Source of the DNA: an uncultured bacterium
GTDB lineage: Bacteria > Fidelibacterota > Marinisomatia > Marinisomatales > Marinisomataceae
Direction of reading: 5' to 3'
NCBI GenBank assembly: GCA_905182795.1
Contig: CAJJCZ010000004.1
Span: 68,506 to 132,505 of the forward strand
DNA length: 64,000 nucleotides
Shown: in pieces, positions 2,188-53,091 of the stretch
Numbering within the stretch: position 1 is the stretch's first letter
Layout of the letters: every line of letters begins with the position of its first letter
Program-made: the position numbers and the translations under genes
Notes under the pieces: model-generated
Told to the model about the DNA's origin: nothing
Databases searched by the model: none
What the model saw: only the letters and a program-made list of their open reading frames with translations

Positions 2188-2904
2188 TTAAGCGTTGCCT
2201 AAACTATCAACTATCTTTTTAAAACTTTCATTCAATTCTACAATCATCTTTTGAGTATAAGGATTATATTTCTGAATATCTTCAAATAATTCCCATGAGT
2301 CATTACAAGTCTGACTCACAAGCTTATGTAATGCTTTATAACCAACGGTATCAATATTAGTCTGTTGTGTTCCAAAATCATCAATCACTCTTCCTACCAA
2401 ATGAGTTAATCCTTGTGAGCGCGCTGCCATCATATCATGTTCTTCAGAAGAAATTTCTTCAATTATAATATTTTGACTTTCAAAGTAGGCTTTCCAGAAT
2501 TCATATCTGTCATGTATATCACGTACTTTTTCCATCATCATCACTGAATCACGCTCTTGAAGCGAGTCAGGTCCAAATAGTGGATGTGTAGCAATAATAT
2601 CTACCTCAGAAGGAAGATGATCTAACATTGCTTGCTTTGGATGAACTTTAACAGAACAGACATCAATTATAGTTTTTTTACCGCTTATTTTTCCAGATAA
2701 GCTGTCCATTAAGCCTTCAAAATCTCTAATTGGAACTGCAACAAATATTGTATCATTTTTTAATACATCTTCTAAAGATACAAAATTAATATCTGATTGA
2801 TTAATGGGATCGATATCAAACACGTCTACTTCAAATCCCTTGATAAGTAACTGATGGAGCATAGTTCCAAATCGTCCAAATCCAATAATGCTAACTTTAT
2901 TCAT
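2188..2904 (-). CDS. tyrA: Prephenate/arogenate dehydrogenase, minimal TyrA
   Basis: GFGRFG Rossmann motif, DVCSVK, HPLFGP, EEHDMMAARSQGLTH. ATG at 2904 preferred over the track TTG at 2913 (AAGGA at suitable spacing). Confidence 0.9.
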   Translation of the reverse strand: MNKVSIIGFGRFGTMLHQLLIKGFEVDVFDIDPINQSDINFVSLEDVLKNDTIFVAVPIRDFEGLMDSLSGKISGKKTIIDVCSVKVHPKQAMLDHLPSEVDIIATHPLFGPDSLQERDSVMMMEKVRDIHDRYEFWKAYFESQNIIIEEISSEEHDMMAARSQGLTHLVGRVIDDFGTQQTNIDTVGYKALHKLVSQTCNDSWELFEDIQKYNPYTQKMIVELNESFKKIVDSLGNA

Positions 2905-3472
2905 TGTTATCAATCCTTTCTACCGCTAAAAATAATGTTAAATTTTTCTTTAGATCATGAATATCGCTTTCGAGAATATTTAATCCATATTTCTCTGCAG
3001 AATTTTTACTTGCAATCACTGCAACATTATCTGAGAATCTTCCTTCTGAAAGATCTTGTGCTGCTTTAGCAGTATCATCCTCTTCCACAAGTTTTTTGGA
3101 CCAAAATTTCTCTGCTAAATAGTCTTTACACTGCTTTAAAGCTTGTTCATGAGAATGAATTTCTTCAATATCTCCTAGAGAAATATTATCTTTTGCTAAT
3201 AAATTTTGGCTAATCTCAACATAGAACATATCTATGATCTTACACTGATTTTTAGCAAGCGCTTCAACACTTTCAATTACAACGCCTCCTTGTGCATTTT
3301 CCATTGCAAAAATTCCAATATCAATCGTTTTTGATGTTAAGCTATTCAATACATTCATTGAGCTTACTAAGTAATCTAGCTCGAATTCTTTGATATCAAA
3401 TTTATTACAATAAGATCCTGCTGCTTCTTCACTAAAACTTCCCGCTATTCCTTGTATGCCAATCTTCTTCAT
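2897..3472 (-). CDS. pheA: Prephenate dehydratase, catalytic domain only (no ACT domain)
   Basis: GIAGSFSEEAA, ENAQGGVV, HSHEQALKQC, DTAKAA; C-terminal NLTLF in place of the canonical NxTRF. Confidence 0.85.
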   Translation of the reverse strand: MKKIGIQGIAGSFSEEAAGSYCNKFDIKEFELDYLVSSMNVLNSLTSKTIDIGIFAMENAQGGVVIESVEALAKNQCKIIDMFYVEISQNLLAKDNISLGDIEEIHSHEQALKQCKDYLAEKFWSKKLVEEDDTAKAAQDLSEGRFSDNVAVIASKNSAEKYGLNILESDIHDLKKNLTLFLAVERIDNNE

Positions 3473-3897
3473 TTTTTCTCCAAAATATGCTTAATTGCTG
3501 TAATATACCCATGCTTACCTTCGCCATAATACTGAGCCAAACAAACACCCTTTATTACTGATATTTTTCTAAAATTTTCTCGATTATGAATATCAGATAA
3601 ATGTACTTCAATTGCCTTTAGTTGCGTTGCGACAATAGCATCTCTTAATGCATATGAATAATGAGTCAATGCGCCTGGATTGATAATAAGATAATCTATA
3701 TCTCTACGCTTTGAATGAATAAAATCAATAATAGCGCCTTCAGAATTAGAATGAAAGAATTCTAAGCTCAAATTAGCACATGCTTCATGATTTTCTATCC
3801 AAGAATTAACCTCTGACAATGATTCAGAGCCGTATATTTCAGGCTCTCTTTCTCCTAATAAATTCAAATTAGGACCATTTACAATAATAATATTCAT
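3469..3897 (-). CDS. aroQ: Type II 3-dehydroquinate dehydratase
   Basis: NGPNLNLLGEREPEIYG, INPGALTHYS, EVHLSDIHNRENFR. Confidence 0.97.
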   Translation of the reverse strand: MNIIIVNGPNLNLLGEREPEIYGSESLSEVNSWIENHEACANLSLEFFHSNSEGAIIDFIHSKRRDIDYLIINPGALTHYSYALRDAIVATQLKAIEVHLSDIHNRENFRKISVIKGVCLAQYYGEGKHGYITAIKHILEKK

Positions 3898-4961
3898 AAG
3901 ACTCCTAAACTTTCTTCAATGTGATTTAATGTTATATTTTTACTAACAATAGCCTTTCCAATTTCTGAAATTAATACAAATCTTATTTGTGATTCTCTAA
4001 ATTTTTTATCTCTTTTTACAAATTCAATAATCTCAGCTTTGTCTTTAACATCAATAGAAGGTAATGTAAAAGCAGATAAGGCTTTCAACCCTTTATGATA
4101 ATCTTTTTCATTCAAACTACCAGCAGTATGTGAAAGATATAATCCACACTTCATTCCATATAGAATTGCTTCTCCGTGAAGCAATGTTTTATACTGAAAA
4201 TAACCTTCAAGAGCATGCCCAATAGTATGGCCAAAATTTAAAATCATTCTCAAGTCATTTTCATTTACATCCCGACTTACCACTTCGCTCTTAATTTGAC
4301 AGGATCTCAAGATAATTTTTTTAAGAATTGTATCATTTTTATTATTGAGGATATCGGACATATTTTTTACGATATAGTCAAACAAATCTCTGTCATAAAT
4401 AAATCCATATTTAATTGCTTCAGCTAATGAGGCATTTATTTCTCTTTCAGGTAATGTAGATAAAAAAGATGTATCGATAATAACTGCTTTTGGTTGATGT
4501 ATTCTTCCTATTAAATTCTTTCCACTTTTTAGATTTACGCCAGTTTTTCCTCCAATAGAAGAATCAATCATAGCCAATAATGTAGTAGGATATTGTATGT
4601 AATTAATGCCTCGCATGAAAATAGAGGCTACAAAACCGGCTGTATCACCGACTACGCCACCGCCTACTGCAAAAATAGTGGAAGAGCGATCATATTGCAT
4701 TGCAGTCATCTTATCACAGATTTCTACTGCCGTCTCAATCGATTTCGCTTCTTCTCCTTGATCGATAAAATGAAATTCTACATTTGGCAAAGATTTTAAC
4801 ACAGAAAATTTATCTTCAAATGCCTCATAGATTACTTCTTGAGTAACAAACATACACTTCGAAGAAGTTGCTATCAACGCAATAGCAGATTCCACAAAAT
4901 TATCATCAAAAATAATATCGTAACTATCTTTTCCAAGATCTACCTTTACTGTATTATTCAT
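3894..4961 (-). CDS. aroB: 3-dehydroquinate synthase
   Basis: GGGVVGD, PTTLLAMIDSSIGGKTG, LNFGHTIGHALE. Confidence 0.97.
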   Translation of the reverse strand: MNNTVKVDLGKDSYDIIFDDNFVESAIALIATSSKCMFVTQEVIYEAFEDKFSVLKSLPNVEFHFIDQGEEAKSIETAVEICDKMTAMQYDRSSTIFAVGGGVVGDTAGFVASIFMRGINYIQYPTTLLAMIDSSIGGKTGVNLKSGKNLIGRIHQPKAVIIDTSFLSTLPEREINASLAEAIKYGFIYDRDLFDYIVKNMSDILNNKNDTILKKIILRSCQIKSEVVSRDVNENDLRMILNFGHTIGHALEGYFQYKTLLHGEAILYGMKCGLYLSHTAGSLNEKDYHKGLKALSAFTLPSIDVKDKAEIIEFVKRDKKFRESQIRFVLISEIGKAIVSKNITLNHIEESLGVL

Positions 4962-5463
4962 TTATATATTCCATTATCATTTTACAACTATCATCAATAT
5001 TTATATTGTCTGTATTCACATTAAGCTTAGATAGTGATTTATATCTTTCTTCTCTATCATTAAAAATATCTCTCATTAAATCTTTTTTATTTCCTACCGA
5101 CAGCAAAGGTCTACTATTATCATTTTTAATTCTTTTATGAAGAGTCTCAAGTGATGTATCTAAATAAACGCAAAAAGATTGATCTAGAATTCTATAGTTC
5201 GAATCTTCTAGCACAATACCTCCACCTGTTGCACAAACAATATGATCTTTTAATACTATTTGTTCTAATTTCTCTGTCTCATAAGTGCGAAATTTATCTT
5301 CTCCATTTTTGAACATATCATTTATTGAAAGACTATGATCTTTCTCTAGTTCTGTATCAATATCTATAAAGGTCCAATCAAGCTTATCTGCTAAGATAGA
5401 TCCTATAGTAGATTTTCCTGATCCCATCATTCCTATTAAGAAAATTTGCTTAATATTTTCCAC
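4954..5463 (-). CDS. aroK: Shikimate kinase
   Basis: GMMGSGKST P-loop, ATGGG, RPLL. Confidence 0.96.
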   Translation of the reverse strand: MENIKQIFLIGMMGSGKSTIGSILADKLDWTFIDIDTELEKDHSLSINDMFKNGEDKFRTYETEKLEQIVLKDHIVCATGGGIVLEDSNYRILDQSFCVYLDTSLETLHKRIKNDNSRPLLSVGNKKDLMRDIFNDREERYKSLSKLNVNTDNINIDDSCKMIMEYINE

Positions 5464-6610
5464 TAGCTTTTATATGTTTTTTAAGTTGATCTAAGCTGTC
5501 TCCGCCAAATTTTTCTAATAATGCATCTGCTAAAACAATAGCTAACATAGCTTCACCAATAATTGAAGCTGCTGGTACAGCACAAGAATCTGTTCTTTCT
5601 TTATGCGCTAACTTTGGCTCCATAGTATTTAAATCAATAGATCGTAATGGCTTTATAAGCGTTGAAATAGGCTTCATACTTACTTTTACATGAATTGGCT
5701 GAGCATTGCTCATTCCACCTTCAATACCTCCGGCATTGTTGCTTGCACGCGTTATTTTACTATCCTCATATAAGATTTCATCATGCAATTCGCTACCAAA
5801 TACAGCTGAAGAAGCAAATCCTGCTCCTACCTCTACACCTTTAAATGCATTTACGGACATCATAGCTTGTGAAATTCTTGCTTGAAGCTTCCCATCTGCA
5901 TTGATATAAGTTCCTAATCCATATGGTAGTCCTTTTGCTATTACCTCAAAAGAGCCTCCAACAGAGTCACCATTAGTTCTAGCTTCATCAATTACATCCA
6001 TCATCTTTTTCTCTGCATCTTTATCAAAACATCGTACAGGTGATGCATCTACTGTATCGTTTAATTCTTGTAAACTCATATCATTAGAAACAGCAGTATT
6101 ATCTACTACATTATGGATTTGATATACACGACTTCCTACCGTAATACCTACCTCCTCTAATAACTTTCTACAAACAGCTCCAATTGCTACACGCATTGCT
6201 GTTTCTCTTGCAGAAGAACGCTCTAATACATTTCTGATATCATCTAATCCATACTTCATTACTCCTGCTAAATCTGCATGTCCAGGACGAGGCATTGTTA
6301 CTTTTCTATGCTCTTTTTTTGGCTCTCCAATAGCCATTCTATCTTCCCAGTTCACCCAATCAAAATTTTTAATCAATAGAGAAATTGGTGACCCCAAAGT
6401 AACAGTATGACGTACTCCAGAAAATATTTCTGCATGGTCTTTTTCGATCTTCATACGACCGCCTCTACCATGCCCTTGCATTCTTCTAATTAAATCTTTT
6501 TCAATATACTCTTCTGTAATATTCATTCCAGCTGGTATACCTTCAATAATTCCAATTAATCCTTTTCCATGGGATTCTCCCGCAGTCATATATGATATTT
6601 TCTTTAACAT
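5450..6610 (-). CDS. aroC: Chorismate synthase
   Basis: TAGESHG, RPGHAD, ERSSARETA, MKPISTL. Confidence 0.98.
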   Translation of the reverse strand: MLKKISYMTAGESHGKGLIGIIEGIPAGMNITEEYIEKDLIRRMQGHGRGGRMKIEKDHAEIFSGVRHTVTLGSPISLLIKNFDWVNWEDRMAIGEPKKEHRKVTMPRPGHADLAGVMKYGLDDIRNVLERSSARETAMRVAIGAVCRKLLEEVGITVGSRVYQIHNVVDNTAVSNDMSLQELNDTVDASPVRCFDKDAEKKMMDVIDEARTNGDSVGGSFEVIAKGLPYGLGTYINADGKLQARISQAMMSVNAFKGVEVGAGFASSAVFGSELHDEILYEDSKITRASNNAGGIEGGMSNAQPIHVKVSMKPISTLIKPLRSIDLNTMEPKLAHKERTDSCAVPAASIIGEAMLAIVLADALLEKFGGDSLDQLKKHIKASGKY

Positions 6611-7431
6611 ATTACTTTCTCCAATTGTTTTTTAATGGAATCCAATTTCTGGTCCACATTATAGGTAGTTTCTGTCCAAATTTCAATAGACTTGATGGCT
6701 TGAAAAATAAGCATTTCTAGTCCATTGATTGATTGTTTTACTCGATCTTTATATTGATTTAAAAATAACGTATGATTTGAAATATAAATCAGATCAATAA
6801 GTATGCTATCTTTATCTACTGGGATATCAAAAAAGCTTATATTGTCTTTCTCTTGATACATTCCTAGCGGTGTTGTATTGATTGCAATATCAAATTTGTT
6901 ATCAGATCCAGTATAAAGCTCAATATTTTTAGCACCTAATTTTTGAGCATATAATTGTATTTCTAATGCATTGTCAATTGACTTATTTTTAATTGTAATT
7001 GACTCAGCTCCTTGATCAATTAATGCCTTAACAATAGTTCTAGCTGAACCACCTGCGCCTAATACAAGACAGCGACTTGAATGAACATTAATATTATTTT
7101 TTTCAAGAAGCATTTTAAACCCATATAAATCTGTATTATATCCTGTTAAGATATCTCCTACTCTTTTAATGCAATTTGTATTACCTAATATCTTTACGTT
7201 GTCATCAATTTCATCTAAAAATTTTAATCCTGTTTTTTTATGTGGAATAGTGATATTTATTCCATCAAACTTTCCTTTTTTAAATCTATCAAAGAAAGAA
7301 GGGAGATCGTCGGAGGCAACATGATGTTTTTCATATGTACAATTATCCAATTCTAATTCTTTAAATAGAATTCTTTGCAATTCAGGGCTAATGCTTTTTT
7401 CTACTGGACTACCTATCAATCCTAGATTCAT
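6604..7431 (-). CDS. aroE: Shikimate dehydrogenase
   Basis: SISP, NITIPHK, NTDLYGF, GAGGSAR, NTTPLGM. Confidence 0.95.
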   Translation of the reverse strand: MNLGLIGSPVEKSISPELQRILFKELELDNCTYEKHHVASDDLPSFFDRFKKGKFDGINITIPHKKTGLKFLDEIDDNVKILGNTNCIKRVGDILTGYNTDLYGFKMLLEKNNINVHSSRCLVLGAGGSARTIVKALIDQGAESITIKNKSIDNALEIQLYAQKLGAKNIELYTGSDNKFDIAINTTPLGMYQEKDNISFFDIPVDKDSILIDLIYISNHTLFLNQYKDRVKQSINGLEMLIFQAIKSIEIWTETTYNVDQKLDSIKKQLEKVIC

Positions 7432-8678
7432 GCTTGTATCTCCTTCAATATGTTAAAAAATCCAGGCAAAGAAATATTGATACAGTCTGTATTGTCAATA
7501 TGGTATTCCTTAAATGCTACTATACTTAATATGATAAATGCCATTGCTATGCGATGATCATCAAAAGATAAAATTTTAGCCATCTTTGTTGGTTTTCCTC
7601 CCTCTACTACTAGATTATTTCCCTCTTCATATGCATTGATACCAAATAATTGTAAATTCTTTATGATAGCATCCAATCTATCGCATTCTTTAAATCTCAA
7701 TTCTTCTACTTCATAAAATATAGTTTTGCCTTCTGCAAATGCTGCAATTACTGCTAAGATAGGAATTTCATCGATTATAGATGGAATCATATGGGCTGGG
7801 ACATCGCAGCTTTTAATGTCAGAACCAATAAATTGTATATTTCCACAAGATTCTCCATTATTTATTGTTGGATTAGATACCAAGCCTTGCACTCCCATTT
7901 TTTCAAGTACGTCAATAAAGCCAGTACGTGTAGGGTTTAATAAAATATTTTCTACAGTAAGACTAGAGCCTTTTAATAAAGCTGCTAATGCAATAAAAAA
8001 GGATGCAGATGATGGATCGGCGGGAATATCCATAGTAAATGATTGTAAAGCAGACGAAAGTGGGTTTACCTCAATATTATCACCATCTACTTTAATATCA
8101 GCTCCCATACTTTTTAGCATGATTTCTGTGTGATCTCTAGAATGTTTTAACTCTGTTACTAGACATGAATCTTTTGATCCTAAACCAGCTAACAATATCG
8201 CTGACTTGACTTGAGCGCTTGCAATAGGCATTTTATAATTAATTCTATCTAAACCGTTCGATGCATCAATGTGTAGTGGCAACAATCCATCATTTGATCT
8301 AATCGTACATCCCATTTCAGTTAATGGTGTAATAACCCTATTCATAGGTCTTTTAGATAGTGACGCATCTCCTATTAATGAGAACGAAAGGTGTTGTGAA
8401 GATAATAATCCTGTTAATAATCTAGAAGTTGTACCAGAATTTCCACAATCAATTGGTTCTATAGGATTTTCTAAAGTTGACCCTGTTACTAGAATAGTAT
8501 CACCTTCTTTTTCTATTGAGACTCCACATGATTGCATTGCTTTAATGGTAGATTGTAAATCTTCTCCATCATTTAAATTTGTAATACAACTTACTCCACT
8601 TGCAATGGAAGCTAACATGATTGATCGATGCGAAATTGATTTATCTCCCGGTAATGAAATAGTAGAATTAATAATCAT
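7428..8678 (-). CDS. aroA: EPSP synthase
   Basis: PGDKSISHR, GNSGTT, SAQVKSA, RDHTE, LRFKECDR, DDHRIAM. Confidence 0.97.
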   Translation of the reverse strand: MIINSTISLPGDKSISHRSIMLASIASGVSCITNLNDGEDLQSTIKAMQSCGVSIEKEGDTILVTGSTLENPIEPIDCGNSGTTSRLLTGLLSSQHLSFSLIGDASLSKRPMNRVITPLTEMGCTIRSNDGLLPLHIDASNGLDRINYKMPIASAQVKSAILLAGLGSKDSCLVTELKHSRDHTEIMLKSMGADIKVDGDNIEVNPLSSALQSFTMDIPADPSSASFFIALAALLKGSSLTVENILLNPTRTGFIDVLEKMGVQGLVSNPTINNGESCGNIQFIGSDIKSCDVPAHMIPSIIDEIPILAVIAAFAEGKTIFYEVEELRFKECDRLDAIIKNLQLFGINAYEEGNNLVVEGGKPTKMAKILSFDDHRIAMAFIILSIVAFKEYHIDNTDCINISLPGFFNILKEIQA

Positions 8679-10018
8679 TATTTTGCTATTTCCTCTGCAA
8701 TATTAAATGATAGTTCTAATGCTTGATTTGCATTCAACCTTGGATCACAATGAGTGTGATATCTAGAATTTAAATCATCATCACTTAACTTATATATACC
8801 ACCCGTGCATTCTGTTACATTTTGACCTGTCATTTCTAGGTGAATTCCACCAAGATGACATCCTTTAGATTTTAAAACATGAATCGCTTTTGTAGTTTCA
8901 TTTAATAACGATGAAAAATCTCTCGTTTTAAGACCAGAAGAGGATTTTACAGTATTCCCATGCATTGGATCAGAGATCCATAACACAGATTTTTTATGCT
9001 TATTAATCGTATCTATTAGTTTAGGTAAATGTGCTTCAATATTATCTTCTCCATAACGGAAGATTAATGAAATTTTACCTGGTTCATTACTTGGATTAAT
9101 TACATCAATAATCTTAATTAATTCTTCTGGGTCTAGTGAAGGTCCACATTTAATTCCGATAGGATTGCTAATACCTCTACAATACTCTACATGCGCACTA
9201 TTAACAAAACGTGTTCTATCTCCAATCCAAATAAAATGTGCTGAAGTGCAATAAATATCGTTAGATAAAGAATCTTTACGAGTTAATGCTTCTTCATAAG
9301 GAAGATGTAATCCTTCATGGCTCGTATAAAAATCTACCGTATTTAGGTCAATTACTTTCTCAGTATCAATACCTACAGCATCCATGAAATCTAAATATTC
9401 TGTAATTTTATTTGCAATTTCTTCATATTTCTTTCCCTCTTTACTCGCCTTTACAAATCCCATATTCCAGGAATTTACTTTACGCAAATTAGCGAATCCT
9501 CCTTGAGCAAAAGATCTTATCAAATTTAATGTAGATGCTGATTGTGAATATGCATGCAATAATCGCGCAGGATTAGGATTTCTATCTTTTTCTGTAAATT
9601 CTATTCCATTAACTGAATCTCCGTAATAGCTATTCAATGTTACGCCATCAATTGTTTCAGTCTCAGACGATCTTGGCTTTGCAAATTGTCCTGCAATTCT
9701 ACCTAACTTGATAACGGGTACTTTCATTTTTGATGTAATGACTGCGCTCATTTGCAAAATGACACGAAAAGAATCTCGAATATTGTTGGCATTAAATTCT
9801 TTAAAACTTTCAGCACAATCTCCTCCCTGCACTAGAAAAGCCTTACCTTTCACTGCTTTTGCTAATTCTAACTTAAGGTTTTTACATTCTCCAGCAAATA
9901 CCAATGGTGGAAATGTACTCAATCGCTCTAGCGCTTCGTCTAACTCGTTTTGATCTTTGTATTCAGGGATATGCTTTATATCAAAATTCTTCCATGAATC
10001 TTTTGTCCATTTACTCAT
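8678..10018 (-). CDS. Class II DAHP synthase
   Basis: 446 aa; LVQGGDCAESF, GRIAGQFAKPRS, WIGDRTR, DPMHGNT, GIHLEMTG, CDPRLN are class II hallmarks. Confidence 0.96.
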   Translation of the reverse strand: MSKWTKDSWKNFDIKHIPEYKDQNELDEALERLSTFPPLVFAGECKNLKLELAKAVKGKAFLVQGGDCAESFKEFNANNIRDSFRVILQMSAVITSKMKVPVIKLGRIAGQFAKPRSSETETIDGVTLNSYYGDSVNGIEFTEKDRNPNPARLLHAYSQSASTLNLIRSFAQGGFANLRKVNSWNMGFVKASKEGKKYEEIANKITEYLDFMDAVGIDTEKVIDLNTVDFYTSHEGLHLPYEEALTRKDSLSNDIYCTSAHFIWIGDRTRFVNSAHVEYCRGISNPIGIKCGPSLDPEELIKIIDVINPSNEPGKISLIFRYGEDNIEAHLPKLIDTINKHKKSVLWISDPMHGNTVKSSSGLKTRDFSSLLNETTKAIHVLKSKGCHLGGIHLEMTGQNVTECTGGIYKLSDDDLNSRYHTHCDPRLNANQALELSFNIAEEIAK

Positions 10019-10278
10019 TATTTCTCCTCAACTTTTTTTGACTCTGTAATAATCGATTGATAGATATGCTTTAAGAAGTCTCCTTCTATTGCTGAAAATT
10101 TGGCATCAATTCTTGCATAAATTCTATCTTCTCTATTTTGATCTAATACCGGCAGTCCTTCTTGTTTTTTAATATATCCAATGGTTGTCACGGCATCTAA
10201 TCTATCAATTAACAAATCAAATACTTGGTTATCAATTGTATCAATTCTGTCTCTATTTTTTTCTATGTCTTTATTCAT
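10018..10278 (-). CDS. Monofunctional AroQ-class chorismate mutase
   Basis: RDRIDTIDNQVFDLL..R...IGYIK, DQNRE. GGAGG lies inside the track's MEVM codons, so the real start is probably ATG 10278 (or 10281). Confidence 0.88.
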   Translation of the reverse strand: MNKDIEKNRDRIDTIDNQVFDLLIDRLDAVTTIGYIKKQEGLPVLDQNREDRIYARIDAKFSAIEGDFLKHIYQSIITESKKVEEK

Positions 10279-10294
10279 CATTACCTCCATATAA

Positions 10295-10324
10295 CAAAAA
10301 ACCCTAGCGAGTTATGCTAGGGTT
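10295..10324 (-). terminator. Intrinsic terminator of the aro attenuator
   Basis: Minus strand AACCCTAGC-ATAACTC-GCTAGGGTT-TTTTG: 9-bp stem, 7-nt loop, U tract. It lies between the leader ORF and the first aro gene. Confidence 0.9.
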
Positions 10325-10351
10325 CGTGTAGTTTTTTATATAGTCCTATTA

Positions 10352-10408
10352 TTAGGCCTCTACAGTCTCCCTGCTTCTAAAATAATAATAGTCGAAAAAG
10401 TTCTTCAT
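10352..10408 (-). CDS. Phe/Tyr-rich leader peptide MKNFFDYYYFRSRETVEA
   Basis: ATG AAG AAC TTT TTC GAC TAT TAT TAT TTT AGA AGC AGG GAG ACT GTA GAG GCC TAA; 6 of 7 consecutive codons are Phe/Tyr; directly 5' of the terminator and aro operon. Confidence 0.85.
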   Translation of the reverse strand: MKNFFDYYYFRSRETVEA

Positions 10409-10415
10409 TTTATAG

Positions 10416-10445
10416 AGTTTAAACATAGGTGAATACAGTTAGCAA
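10416..10445 (-). promoter_or_regulatory. Putative sigma70 promoter of the aro leader
   Basis: TTGCTA-N18-TAAACT, 7 nt before the leader ATG; no SD seen. Confidence 0.45.
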
Positions 10446-10455
10446 GATAAATTAA

Positions 10456-12876
10456 TTATTTCACAAAAATCAATTTGCGCATTCTATTATCTGCTCTAAT
10501 AGCAGACTCTGAGAATTTAAATGACTTAAACTCTCCTTTGTTATAAAGAGATGTTTGATCAGTGTAATGCGGTGATTTGAATACACCAGATTGGCCTGTT
10601 GGAAGAATACTTAAACCGTTATCAAAATTAGAAAAGTCAATAACTCTTCTCATAGAAGATCCTGCTCTGACATCAAATGGATCACTAACGGAATAACTAG
10701 CAGCTCTTGGTGTCATTCCAGATCCAGCCATTGGAAAAGGACCTGTACTGAAATTAATAAATCTTTTTACTAATGGATCTCTATCCAATCGATGACGATA
10801 AGTGACTTGATGCACGTCTCCCCATGTCAAGTCTCTAGGGTTGCCATAACTTTTAGTTAGAAAGTCATGCGCATCTTCAAAAGACTGATTAACAATATCA
10901 TTCAACGTTTCTTTTTCACTTGATGAAACATTATCTATCCATAAGGTCGCCTTTCCATCAAAAATACTACGAATAGCTAACGAACGGATATATTTTAAGC
11001 TATAAAAAGTATCAAAAGAATCACTACCAAAACTTTGCAATTCATCTTGAAACAAATTTTGGACCAACTGAATGTAGATAGCATGAAAAACTACGGTAGC
11101 ATTTGAGTCTAGAGACTCAACGCCATCCCATCCATTTAAGATATTATACATTTCATCTCCCTTAGCAGAAAAACCTTCAGTATAATTGTTATAGAATAAT
11201 TTTGAGTACTCTTGAGCAAATGGTGACGTAATCTCATTCAAAATAGATTTCATATCTTCCACTCCTAACTTAGAATCCACTCTTAGTCTTCTATCAATTT
11301 GCTCTCCTCTACTAGGATCTGCCCAATATCGAGAAATATAATAAGGGTAGTCGTCATCGATTGTTTTGTTATTACCATTCGATATATATCCTTTTTCAGG
11401 ATTATATACATATGGCATCTCATCAAAAGGAACATATCCTTTCCAATCATGCTTACTTGTACTGCCATCAAAAGGTATTAATTGTTCTGCTCCCAATCTA
11501 ATTGGGATTTTAGCATTAGGTCTCCATCCAATATTTCCATTTTTATCTGCATAGGTCCAATTTTGTCCAGGCGCTCCAAATAATTTAGATGCTTCTGAAA
11601 ATTCATCCCAATTGGTTGCCTGAGCTAGCTTAAATAAAGCCGTTGTCTCATCAAATGCATCGAACTCAGTCCACTGAAAAGAAATGGCTTTGCTTCCCCC
11701 TTTGGCATCAGGATGAATATCGCTCACAATAGGGCCTCGATGAGTAGATCTAATGGTTATAGTTTTGGTATTACCAGACTTTAGATACAGTACTTCTTCT
11801 TCAATCTTTAAATCTTTCCATTCTCCATCAAGCATATACTGCGTTTTATCATCATTTAATGTTTCAATATAAAAATCCATGTCATCCGTCATCACATTGG
11901 TAAAACCCCAACCAATATGATCGTTATGCCCTATAACAGGCAATGGGAATCCGTAGAGACCATACCCTCCAAAATTATAATTATCGCTCTTTAGTCTAAT
12001 CTCATACCACCAGGGAGGCTGACCATAGCTCAAATGAGGATCATTCGCTAAAAGTGGGAGCCCTGTATCAGTTTTACTTCCTGAAACTACCCATGCATTC
12101 GATCCATATCCATCTCTGTCTGTTTTAAGTATTTCTCTAATTCTTTTGGTATCGCTGGCAAAATCTTGATAACTCTTTAGCAAGACATCGTTTGAAGCAA
12201 TGGTAATAAAATTATCATCATAAGCTGGTAAGATTTCGTTTAAATATTCTGAACCTAATTGTTCATTCACAGCACCAAAAAATAGCTCTGAATCCCATCC
12301 ACCCTGCAATTCCCATGCCATCATTGTTGACAAGGCAACTATATCTAGTGGTCTAAAAGTTGGTAATTTTTCTATACCTAAAAGCTTAAATTCTAACGGA
12401 TAATCTGACGGAGATAGGGTTTCCACATAAGTATTAATACCAAAACATGTATCTTCGAGATGTTGTAACGTTTGAGCTGGAATTGTCGCTAAACTCTTTT
12501 GAGCAATTTTTTCAAATCCTAGTGTACGTAAAAATTTGTCTTCTCGAAACAGTGAGTCATTGAGCACTAAGCTAAGTTCGCCTTTATATGCATATGTCAT
12601 AAATGCCATTTGGAACAGTCGATCTCTAGCTCCTACATACCCAGCCACTTTAAACATATCAGAATCATTTGAAGCAAAAATACTTGGGACACCATACTCA
12701 TCAAAATAGACATCAACGGTATCTTGAATATCTAAATTACTAATTTCTCCCTCGTAAGGAATATCAGTAGGCTTTAAAAAAGACTTGACTGAAAAACCAA
12801 TAAAAGCAACCGTAATAAAAACAGCTATTGGTAAATACCTACTTAATAAAATGAATGTTTTAGATTGTTTCCCCAC
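10456..12876 (-). CDS. Penicillin acylase family Ntn hydrolase (peptidase S45)
   Basis: N-terminal TM anchor, DEYGVPSI, GSNAWVV nucleophile, ANDPHL; GTG start. Confidence 0.93.
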   Translation of the reverse strand: MGKQSKTFILLSRYLPIAVFITVAFIGFSVKSFLKPTDIPYEGEISNLDIQDTVDVYFDEYGVPSIFASNDSDMFKVAGYVGARDRLFQMAFMTYAYKGELSLVLNDSLFREDKFLRTLGFEKIAQKSLATIPAQTLQHLEDTCFGINTYVETLSPSDYPLEFKLLGIEKLPTFRPLDIVALSTMMAWELQGGWDSELFFGAVNEQLGSEYLNEILPAYDDNFITIASNDVLLKSYQDFASDTKRIREILKTDRDGYGSNAWVVSGSKTDTGLPLLANDPHLSYGQPPWWYEIRLKSDNYNFGGYGLYGFPLPVIGHNDHIGWGFTNVMTDDMDFYIETLNDDKTQYMLDGEWKDLKIEEEVLYLKSGNTKTITIRSTHRGPIVSDIHPDAKGGSKAISFQWTEFDAFDETTALFKLAQATNWDEFSEASKLFGAPGQNWTYADKNGNIGWRPNAKIPIRLGAEQLIPFDGSTSKHDWKGYVPFDEMPYVYNPEKGYISNGNNKTIDDDYPYYISRYWADPSRGEQIDRRLRVDSKLGVEDMKSILNEITSPFAQEYSKLFYNNYTEGFSAKGDEMYNILNGWDGVESLDSNATVVFHAIYIQLVQNLFQDELQSFGSDSFDTFYSLKYIRSLAIRSIFDGKATLWIDNVSSSEKETLNDIVNQSFEDAHDFLTKSYGNPRDLTWGDVHQVTYRHRLDRDPLVKRFINFSTGPFPMAGSGMTPRAASYSVSDPFDVRAGSSMRRVIDFSNFDNGLSILPTGQSGVFKSPHYTDQTSLYNKGEFKSFKFSESAIRADNRMRKLIFVK

Positions 12877-53058: not shown

Positions 53059-53091
53059 AAAAATACTCTGATTATTTCAGAGTATTTTTTT
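53059..53091 (+). terminator. Intrinsic terminator, probably bidirectional
   Basis: AAAAATACTCTGA-TTATT-TCAGAGTATTTTT 13-bp perfect inverted repeat followed by more T. Confidence 0.8.

Follow-up and report, generated by a model that had tools for sequence, protein, structure and literature searches.

The described attenuators that come closest to the element considered here are found in Escherichia coli and Corynebacterium glutamicum. The E. coli pheL leader, which is preceded by a Shine-Dalgarno (SD) sequence, combines a short leader open reading frame (ORF) and aromatic codons with a terminator/antiterminator pair in front of pheA and thus controls chorismate mutase/prephenate dehydratase functions. 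Multivalent attenuators are also known from this organism, i.e. the ilvGMEDA leader with Ile, Leu and Val codons and the thr leader with Thr and Ile codons. In C. glutamicum, the leader peptide aroR with its Phe-Tyr-Phe motif is located upstream of the DAHP synthase gene aroF, as predicted in PMC4046766 and as taken up, with reference to Neshat et al. 2014, in PMC11802643. Here, we analyze a leader rich in Phe and Tyr codons (F/Y leader) on the minus strand of a stretch of 64,000 nucleotides (nt), hereafter the window, that covers positions 68,506 to 132,505 of contig CAJJCZ010000004.1 (assembly GCA_905182795.1). It derives from an uncultured bacterium of the Marinisomataceae whose closest relatives by DAHP synthase (92-96% identity) are Marinimicrobia/Neomarinimicrobiota metagenome-assembled genomes (MAGs) and single-cell genomes. 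Based on its elements, their conservation, covariation and complementarity, and the dependence of its folding on ribosome position in silico, this leader very probably acts as a functional ribosome-mediated (leader-peptide) transcription attenuator of an aromatic amino acid operon, with a predicted promoter, start site, termination event and response to Phe and Tyr.

Leaders of the pheL type are mainly gamma-proteobacterial with few representatives in Bacteroides (PMC3082878), and when Actinobacteria were surveyed, their Phe and Tyr genes turned out to have no RNA elements (PMC1262725). In the Flavobacteriaceae, which are FCB-group relatives of the Marinimicrobia, structured 5' regions without Rfam matches have been noted upstream of pheA and hisG, in a study that does not describe them in detail (PMC9723704). 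For the window leader, none of the Rfam leader families (Phe, Trp, His, Leu, Thr, leu/phe), T-boxes or riboswitches matched positions 9800-11000 at E values up to 10, and a scan of the whole window at the gathering thresholds likewise gave no match. Membership in the pheL, T-box or riboswitch families is ruled out by this lack of matches, T-boxes being judged by a specifier loop, the T-box sequence, a multi-stem architecture of ~200 nt and the Rfam model. Unlike the window leader, pheL contains Phe codons only and governs one terminal bifunctional enzyme. The ilvGMEDA and thr leaders share with it the principle of one peptide with codons for several end products of a branched pathway, yet they serve other pathways, are proteobacterial and, given the missing Rfam match, are not homologous.

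Like aroR (PMC4046766, PMC11802643), the window leader places Phe and Tyr codons before an operon that opens the common aromatic pathway and would couple ribosome stalling to a choice between terminator and antiterminator. The resemblance is functional and by description; aroR belongs to the Actinobacteria, whereas the run in Marinimicrobia is much denser (5-7 F/Y, usually with YYY) and the leader would govern a single operon that holds the whole common pathway together with the enzymes of the Phe and Tyr branches. An earlier note on this DNA suspected that a two-amino-acid sensor over the common pathway had not been described. According to these two sources, aroR before aroF is of exactly that kind, and because of this precedent mixed Phe/Tyr codons must count as already described for the enzyme that opens the common pathway. 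The new part is a phylum-wide, Tyr-dominated F/Y leader family, probably leaderless, that controls a complete ten-gene aromatic operon. A literature search returned nothing that links Marinimicrobia/SAR406 to leader peptides or shikimate operons and nothing relevant on Tyr-codon leaders.

The leader occupies a minus-strand intergenic region of 165 nt between the stop codon of a penicillin-amidase-family gene and the chorismate mutase (CM) gene (Table 1). Its codons, ATG AAG AAC TTT TTC GAC TAT TAT TAT TTT AGA AGC AGG GAG ACT GTA GAG GCC TAA, comprise three for Phe and three for Tyr within a stretch of seven and none for Trp. An A-rich stretch separates this ORF from an intrinsic terminator, which sits between the leader ORF and the first structural gene and ranks first among the terminator-like sites found by a consensus scan of the first 14 kb (10 pairs, 5 G-C). 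The whole element measures ~113 nt, and in single-sequence folding its RNA is more stable than dinucleotide shuffles (z = -2.96). The promoter pair, ORF, helix segments, terminator and GGAGG motif that the earlier note had picked out were all recovered at the same minus-strand positions. At a window G+C content of 32.3%, 7-residue windows with at least six Phe/Tyr occur four times in the six frames, compared with 1.1 +/- 0.8 times in shuffles. The rarity of a single F/Y run was dropped as an argument, since it is not significant in an AT-rich genome; hence, significance rests on position and conservation. A search of the window found no other mini-ORFs ahead of terminators and no tRNA genes.

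Within the window clade, CM lies directly upstream of DAHP synthase (DAHPS) in six genome loci, all of which carry an ATG-started F/Y ORF of 18-19 codons followed by a terminator. The subsequent metagenome scan was queried with a CM alignment headed by a clade-balanced consensus, which avoided that the best matches were all clones of the window. It added 34 CM-DAHPS loci with CM identities of 62-89%, and an F/Y leader plus terminator is present in 33/33 of those having upstream DNA, with peptide variants that include MKNFFNYYYFRSRGTVEA, MKSNNNFYYYFNGRGYVGT, MKSNNNFYYYFRSRGTVGA, MKNFFNSYYYFRSRGTVGA and MKNFNYYYFYFRCRGTIGA. An F/Y-rich upstream ORF in related MAGs, which had been named as a check on the idea, is thus kept in every one of these genome and metagenome relatives.

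In distant Marinimicrobia, whose DAHP synthases are 57-62% identical, the operon is rearranged to the order PDT-PDH-DAHPS-aroA-aroE-aroC-aroK-aroB (PDT, prephenate dehydratase; PDH, prephenate dehydrogenase). There, the F/Y mini-ORF and terminator are found directly 5' of PDT or, in two loci, of PDH (for the peptides, see Table 1, where loci carry L numbers). The gene upstream of the leader is of eight kinds, i.e. penicillin amidase, amino-acid kinase, TrpA, chorismate mutase, a divergent radical-SAM gene, class-IV aminotransferase, short-chain dehydrogenase and HAD hydrolase. Hence, the element is linked to the 5' end of the aro operon, whichever gene lies next to it. An nhmmer sequence profile built from the window clade only detects L023 alone among the distant leaders (E = 4.7e-4), and a covariance model of the same origin matches distant leaders over their full length, with ATG and U tract included. 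Its E values are 2.8e-5 for L023, 3.4e-4 for L020, 3.5e-3 for L027, 4.1e-3 for L016 and 7.5e-3 for L022, and about 0.2 for L035, L030 and L014; on the window itself, the leader is the sole significant match. The Marinimicrobia leaders thus look like one RNA family. In the same scan, F/Y leaders were found neither in about 50 Pelagibacter/alphaproteobacterial DAHPS loci nor in 44 unrelated distant CM loci, several of which have 28-31% G+C.

The way in which the leaders vary points to selection at the coding level. In all lineages they span 14-22 codons with at least three Tyr and at least one Phe, the Phe count falling to one in L014 and L020. TAT/TAC and TTT/TTC codons swap among lineages, and F and Y change places within the run; neither their order nor the N-terminus nor the C-terminal peptide is conserved, and only the composition of the F/Y run is kept. 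Over 13 lineages, the ATG frame contains 76 Phe and Tyr codons compared with 13 and 23 in the other two frames, both of which contain stops. L023 retains GCAGGGG...UGUAG and ACUACAC...ACCCC but reads them in a different frame, with the UAG within UGUAG as stop codon. This frame shift with preserved RNA segments matches the prediction for a sensor ORF and disfavours a functional micropeptide.

The helices were assessed in an alignment of 30 distinct window-clade leaders. For the terminator, 98.9% of the cells are paired compared with 18-66% in slid registers, and three compensatory pairs occur (UA<->CG, GC<->AU, CG<->UA). The antiterminator (columns 38-52 with 82-97) is paired in 85.9% of the cells overall and in about 100% of its core, slid registers reaching 24-44%. 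Its compensatory pairs are 49-85 (GC<->AU in six sequences), 42-93 (GC<->AU in L081) and 47-87 (CG<->AU). The first occurs as the natural variant G49A/C85U in the L006 clade, the second as G42A/C93U in L081. In L081, a G-to-A change in the ORF arm is matched by a C-to-U change in the terminator 5' arm, which the terminator tolerates only as a G-U wobble. Without guidance, RNAalifold recovers the terminator and the long-range UGUAG/CUACA helix, and GGGG:CCCY is added once the alignment is truncated before the terminator 3' arm. Duplexes between the ORF segment from the last F/Y codon to the stop and the terminator 5' arm were compared with 1000 random windows of the same locus. The real duplexes reach -9 to -20 kcal/mol and the controls -3.5 to -6, with empirical p values of 0.001-0.043 in each of 11/11 lineages, which are not fully independent because the lineages are related. 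For the window, the values are -13.6 kcal/mol and -4.2 +/- 2.5 for random windows.

The third helix put forward in the earlier note, a protector between the Tyr codons and the region of the leader stop codon, fared less well. Its bases are present and it appears in the full-length minimum free energy structure of the window. It is paired in 87.8% of the cells with zero compensatory changes, and a +3 slid register still gives 74%, because the sequence is a UAU repeat of ambiguous register. The helix is not in the RNAalifold consensus, and the RNA that exists before the antiterminator 3' strand folds no more stably than shuffles (z -1.2 to +0.8; window -0.79). Stem covariation, another suggested check, thus speaks for the terminator and the antiterminator and fails to do so for the protector. 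The loop between the antiterminator arms, GGACUAUAU plus an A-rich run (10346-10332; alignment columns 66-81), is near-invariant in the window clade and takes part in no supported helix; it might serve for pausing, as a spacer or as a contact site for a protein.

Dependence on ribosome position was examined by masking a 28-nt ribosome footprint in RNA truncated just before the terminator 3' arm. When this RNA is free or carries the footprint on the F/Y codons, the G-rich segment, which belongs to the last third of the ORF, captures the terminator 5' arm. With the footprint on the stop codon, antiterminator pairing collapses in nearly all lineages to about -3 to -6 kcal/mol, and to 0.0 in the consensus fold. 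In every lineage, 0-20 nt separate the antiterminator arm from the stop codon downstream of it. The geometry holds in silico, as in E. coli trpL: a ribosome at the stop codon masks the antiterminator 5' strand, which is left free by one at the regulatory codons. The 1:2 and 2:3 helices of trpL have region 2 in common, whereas the putative helix 1 of the window shares no bases with the antiterminator; as it would enclose the antiterminator 5' arm, the two would be mutually exclusive for topological reasons only. Comparative and folding tests together support the original idea of a trpL/pheL-type attenuator with Phe/Tyr codons ahead of the whole operon.

A mechanism can be proposed on this basis. 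Transcription would start with the A of the leader AUG or a nucleotide adjacent to it, and a ribosome would translate the 18-codon leader while RNA polymerase makes the next ~60 nt. If Phe-tRNA and Tyr-tRNA are both charged, the ribosome would reach the UAA, where its footprint covers GCAGGG...UGUAG. With the G-rich arm covered, the C-rich AACCCUAGC would be free to pair with GCUAGGGUU, and the resulting terminator and U tract would stop transcription before CM. If either charged tRNA is scarce, the ribosome would instead stall in FFDYYYF and leave the G-rich arm exposed. This arm could then pair with CUACA...CCCUAGC once the latter is made, which would sequester the terminator 5' arm and allow read-through into the ten genes. 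Repression would thus need both amino acids and a shortage of either would de-repress, which amounts to multivalent control of the common pathway and both branches. The putative helix between the Tyr codons and the stop region may have a role in pausing or in the termination of transcripts that are not translated.

Several observations weigh against such an attenuator, or at least against parts of it. Thermodynamic folding of the full-length RNA favours the terminator whichever segment is masked, so that the switch must be kinetic, as in other attenuators. Full-length masked folding, which had been suggested as a check, was uninformative as a switch test and was replaced by the truncated folds, and only these show the expected footprint-dependent antiterminator. 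The truncated consensus fold of free RNA also gives the antiterminator, and helix 1, which classically secures termination of untranslated RNA and the synchrony of ribosome and polymerase, lacks statistical support and is a possibility only. The margin is tight, as a ribosome on the last regulatory codons would already have the GGG arm partly under its leading edge. RNAs of the L004 clade can still form another, shorter terminator hairpin beside the antiterminator. The relatedness of the lineages means that the combined statistics overstate independence. For C. glutamicum aroR, PMC11802643 describes that stalling raises transcription under Phe but not Tyr limitation, the Tyr codon having no measurable role. 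Finally, among the loci whose first aro gene is preceded by an intergenic region, L017 (3000-3260) alone has no convincing F/Y leader or terminator.

L017 has just a 9-codon, TTG-initiated MISDFKNFY and no G+C-rich hairpin, and its element may have been lost or have degenerated. In L004/L005/L082/L091 (e.g. L004:1284-1312), the terminator loop contains a second CCCC, and a 7-bp hairpin AACCCCA/...GGGGUU can still precede the U tract while the first CCCC is bound by the antiterminator; antitermination may be leakier in this subclade.

The transcript start appears similarly arranged in most lineages. TTGnnn occurs 17-18 nt upstream of TAnnnT in 13/15 lineages, and the distance from TAnnnT to the ATG is 7-8 nt in the window, L001-L005, L016, L027, L030 and L035 and about 6 nt in the L006 clade; L020 and L022 are exceptions with 20-nt leaders. 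The gap between the -10-like box and the leader ATG contains no SD, unlike that ahead of CM with its GGAGG. Because the -10-like box lies 6-8 nt before the ATG and an SD is missing, the leader mRNA is probably leaderless or near-leaderless in most lineages, which strengthens an earlier remark that it may be nearly so. A precedent for a leader peptide made without ribosome-binding site is the C. glutamicum ilvB leader, which is cited in PMC4046766. An in-frame upstream ATG at 10426 would lengthen the leader to 24 amino acids (MFKLYKM...). It is unlikely to serve as the start, as it lies within the -10-like region (10426-10409) and is confined to the window subclade.

Other explanations of the locus can be weighed against these data. 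The hairpin could simply terminate transcription of the penicillin-amidase gene upstream, and the F/Y mini-ORF could have arisen by chance in intergenic DNA that is rich in A and T. There is indeed no other terminator between the amidase stop (10456) and 10325, and F/Y-dense 7-mers are, as stated above, not rare at 32% GC (four in the window, about one expected). Yet the unit of ORF and terminator is found behind eight unrelated upstream genes, one of them divergent, it always precedes the first aro gene, its excess of F/Y codons is confined to one frame, and complementarity of the ORF 3' segment to the terminator arm is seen in 11/11 lineages, with control loci having no matches; we therefore give a chance origin next to no credence. 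A ligand-, protein- or tRNA-binding RNA switch (riboswitch, T-box, TRAP-like) with an incidental ORF would share the terminator/antiterminator competition, which is common to all such mechanisms. The near-invariant loop of GGACUAUAU and A-rich sequence, which has no assigned role, would suit it, and aromatic genes of Firmicutes stand under Tyr T-boxes (PMC1262725). This is nevertheless very unlikely, given that no Rfam model matches, that ~113 nt are too few for a T-box, and that what is conserved throughout the phylum is the in-frame F/Y run, the ATG and a stop by the antiterminator arm, with no core resembling a ligand pocket. The ORF might also encode a functional micropeptide or a TnaC-like nascent arrest peptide that senses free aromatic amino acids instead of tRNA charging. 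Nascent chains with many aromatic residues are able to contact the exit tunnel of the ribosome, and the ORF would be translated from the extreme 5' end of the transcript. Arrest peptides and micropeptides are normally conserved position by position, however, and here it is only the composition of the F/Y run, not order or termini, that is conserved, the 3' part of L023 even being in another frame; this makes a functional peptide still less probable than an RNA switch.

A genuine attenuator that effectively senses one amino acid, Tyr or Phe alone, with the other codon type tolerated or slowing the ribosome, is a more serious alternative, which we nevertheless consider unlikely. For aroR with its F-Y-F motif, PMC11802643 reports that transcription is raised by Phe limitation only and not by Tyr limitation. 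In Marinimicrobia it is Tyr that is more constant, with at least three per leader, often as YYY, and a Phe count that drops to one in L014 and L020. On the other hand, both residues occur in 13/13 lineages despite free reshuffling of their order, the operon encodes the enzymes of both branches, PDT and PDH, and geometrically any slowly decoded codon before the antiterminator arm should act alike. That an attenuator in Marinimicrobia really senses both Phe and Tyr is inferred solely because both codon types are present in every lineage, and we lean towards it with limited assurance. A still broader picture would join all of these features. The leaders would form a phylum-wide Marinimicrobia RNA family on a leaderless transcript, a true two-input sensor of Tyr (usually YYY) and Phe in which either shortage de-represses the entire common pathway and both branches. 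The element would stay anchored at the 5' end during gene reshuffling and, in some lineages, would have gained a Trp codon (L014, L030) or been replaced by a trp-gene fusion. As a whole, this combination is slightly less likely than not.

The Marinimicrobia (SAR406) are an abundant group in the ocean from which no member is in culture, and very little is known about how their genes are regulated; the leader offers a concrete regulatory mechanism for a central pathway in this phylum. It adds a leader family that is un-curated, as judged by the missing Rfam match, for which a covariance model and about 40 natural variants are available, several compensatory mutants from nature among the latter. 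It also carries the aroR-type idea of mixed Phe/Tyr codons on the common pathway over to another, distant phylum and to an operon of all ten genes. The ratio of leader to operon reads in metatranscriptomes could indicate in-situ limitation of SAR406 populations for aromatic amino acids. The understanding of attenuation itself is unchanged by the Marinimicrobia leader. Should the combined two-input picture hold, a response to tyrosine would for the first time be shown for an attenuator, and the leader would be a compact model for the way in which streamlined marine genomes regulate a branched pathway without protein regulators.

Table 1. Features of the leader locus in the window and leader peptides of distant Marinimicrobia loci.
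Feature	Position	Strand	Sequence or motif	Remarks
Penicillin-amidase-family gene	12876-10456	minus		Pfam; stop codon at 10456
-35-like hexamer	10445-10440	minus	TTGCTA	consensus match only
Spacer between TTGCTA and TAAACT		minus		18 nt; read from sequence
-10-like hexamer	10421-10416	minus	TAAACT	7 nt before leader ATG at 10408
Leader ORF	10408-10352	minus	MKNFFDYYYFRSRETVEA	18 codons + TAA
Regulatory codon run	10399-10379	minus	TTT TTC GAC TAT TAT TAT TTT	FFDYYYF
Putative protector 5' arm	10391-10383	minus	CUAUUAUUA	Tyr codons
Antiterminator 5' arm	10374-10369 and 10364-10360	minus	GCAGGG and UGUAG	in 3' part of leader ORF, 6-20 nt before stop codon
Putative protector 3' arm	10354-10346	minus	UAAUAAUAG	contains leader stop codon
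Antiterminator 3' arm	10331-10327 and 10322-10316	minus	CUACA and CCCUAGC	3' half doubles as terminator 5' arm
Intrinsic terminator	10325-10295	minus	AACCCUAGC-AUAACUC-GCUAGGGUU, then UUUUUUG	9-10 bp stem, 7-nt loop, U tract
SD of CM	10288-10284	minus	GGAGG	read from sequence
Operon of ten genes	2188-10290	minus		Pfam; neighbouring ORFs all overlap or abut
L016 leader peptide			MNYIITKNYYSSYFFFTRERVL	
L020 leader peptide			MATKYYYQTYFNDGLRVSP	
L022 leader peptide			MATNYYYKFFMNNGLRIRP	
L023 leader peptide			MNIEKFYNFYGYFTHAGEM	
L027 leader peptide			MKIFFYYFKYAIEGLKNCP	
L035 leader peptide			MLNTFYFYYFAKTRGNT	
L014 leader peptide			MFNYYYWNYRKSGG	
L030 leader peptide			MIKLTAEQFTIFYWYYGSGGLE	

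The operon behind the leader encodes CM (CM_2), class-II DAHP synthase, EPSP synthase (aroA), shikimate dehydrogenase (aroE), chorismate synthase (aroC), shikimate kinase (aroK), DHQ synthase (aroB), DHQase II (aroQ), PDT and PDH. For all ten, the Pfam assignments agree with the aromatic/shikimate content that had been read from the sequence before. A terminator scan found no site of comparable quality on the minus strand inside the operon. Because the frames overlap and internal terminators are absent, all ten genes appear to be co-transcribed. Downstream of PDH, the minus strand of 365-2175 holds a 122-amino-acid ORF without Pfam match, an ECF-type sigma factor (1770-1243) and two further ORFs without Pfam match. 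Judging from the small gaps and the lack of a predicted terminator in 365-2175, the transcription unit could extend past the ten aro genes. At the other end, the ORF-list start of CM is the ATG at 10290, which overlaps its own SD (ATGGAGG). The real start is probably the ATG at 10278 (MNKD...), 5 nt past GGAGG, because of this overlap and because the CM genes of L004/L005 start at the equivalent MNKD.

Gene content around the leader differs in some of the distant loci. The operons of L014 (3153-3197) and L030 (3096-3164) begin with PDH and have no PDT within 4 kb. In both, the leader has a Trp codon within the F/Y run (MFNYYYWNY..., ...FTIFYWYYG...), which hints at a three-amino-acid sensor in some lineages. 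In L007, L008, L010, L011, L013, L019, L021, L024, L026 and L043, PDT is preceded gaplessly by 210-aa, 402-aa (aa, amino acids) and TrpA-like ORFs. In these ten loci, the aro operon directly continues the end of the trp genes (trpA-PDT fusion) and has no leader of its own; any leader would be located farther upstream. PBPT01000023.1 and CAZCHA010000001.1 are examples of genomes with this fusion. In L016 (2271-2501) and L014 (2808-3107), a CM_2 gene lies just upstream of the leader and thus outside the attenuated unit, whereas in the window clade CM is the first attenuated gene. Elsewhere in the window, at 53059-53089 on both strands, a perfect 13-bp A/T-flanked hairpin, AAAAATACTCTGA...TCAGAGTATTTTT, resembles a bidirectional intrinsic terminator.

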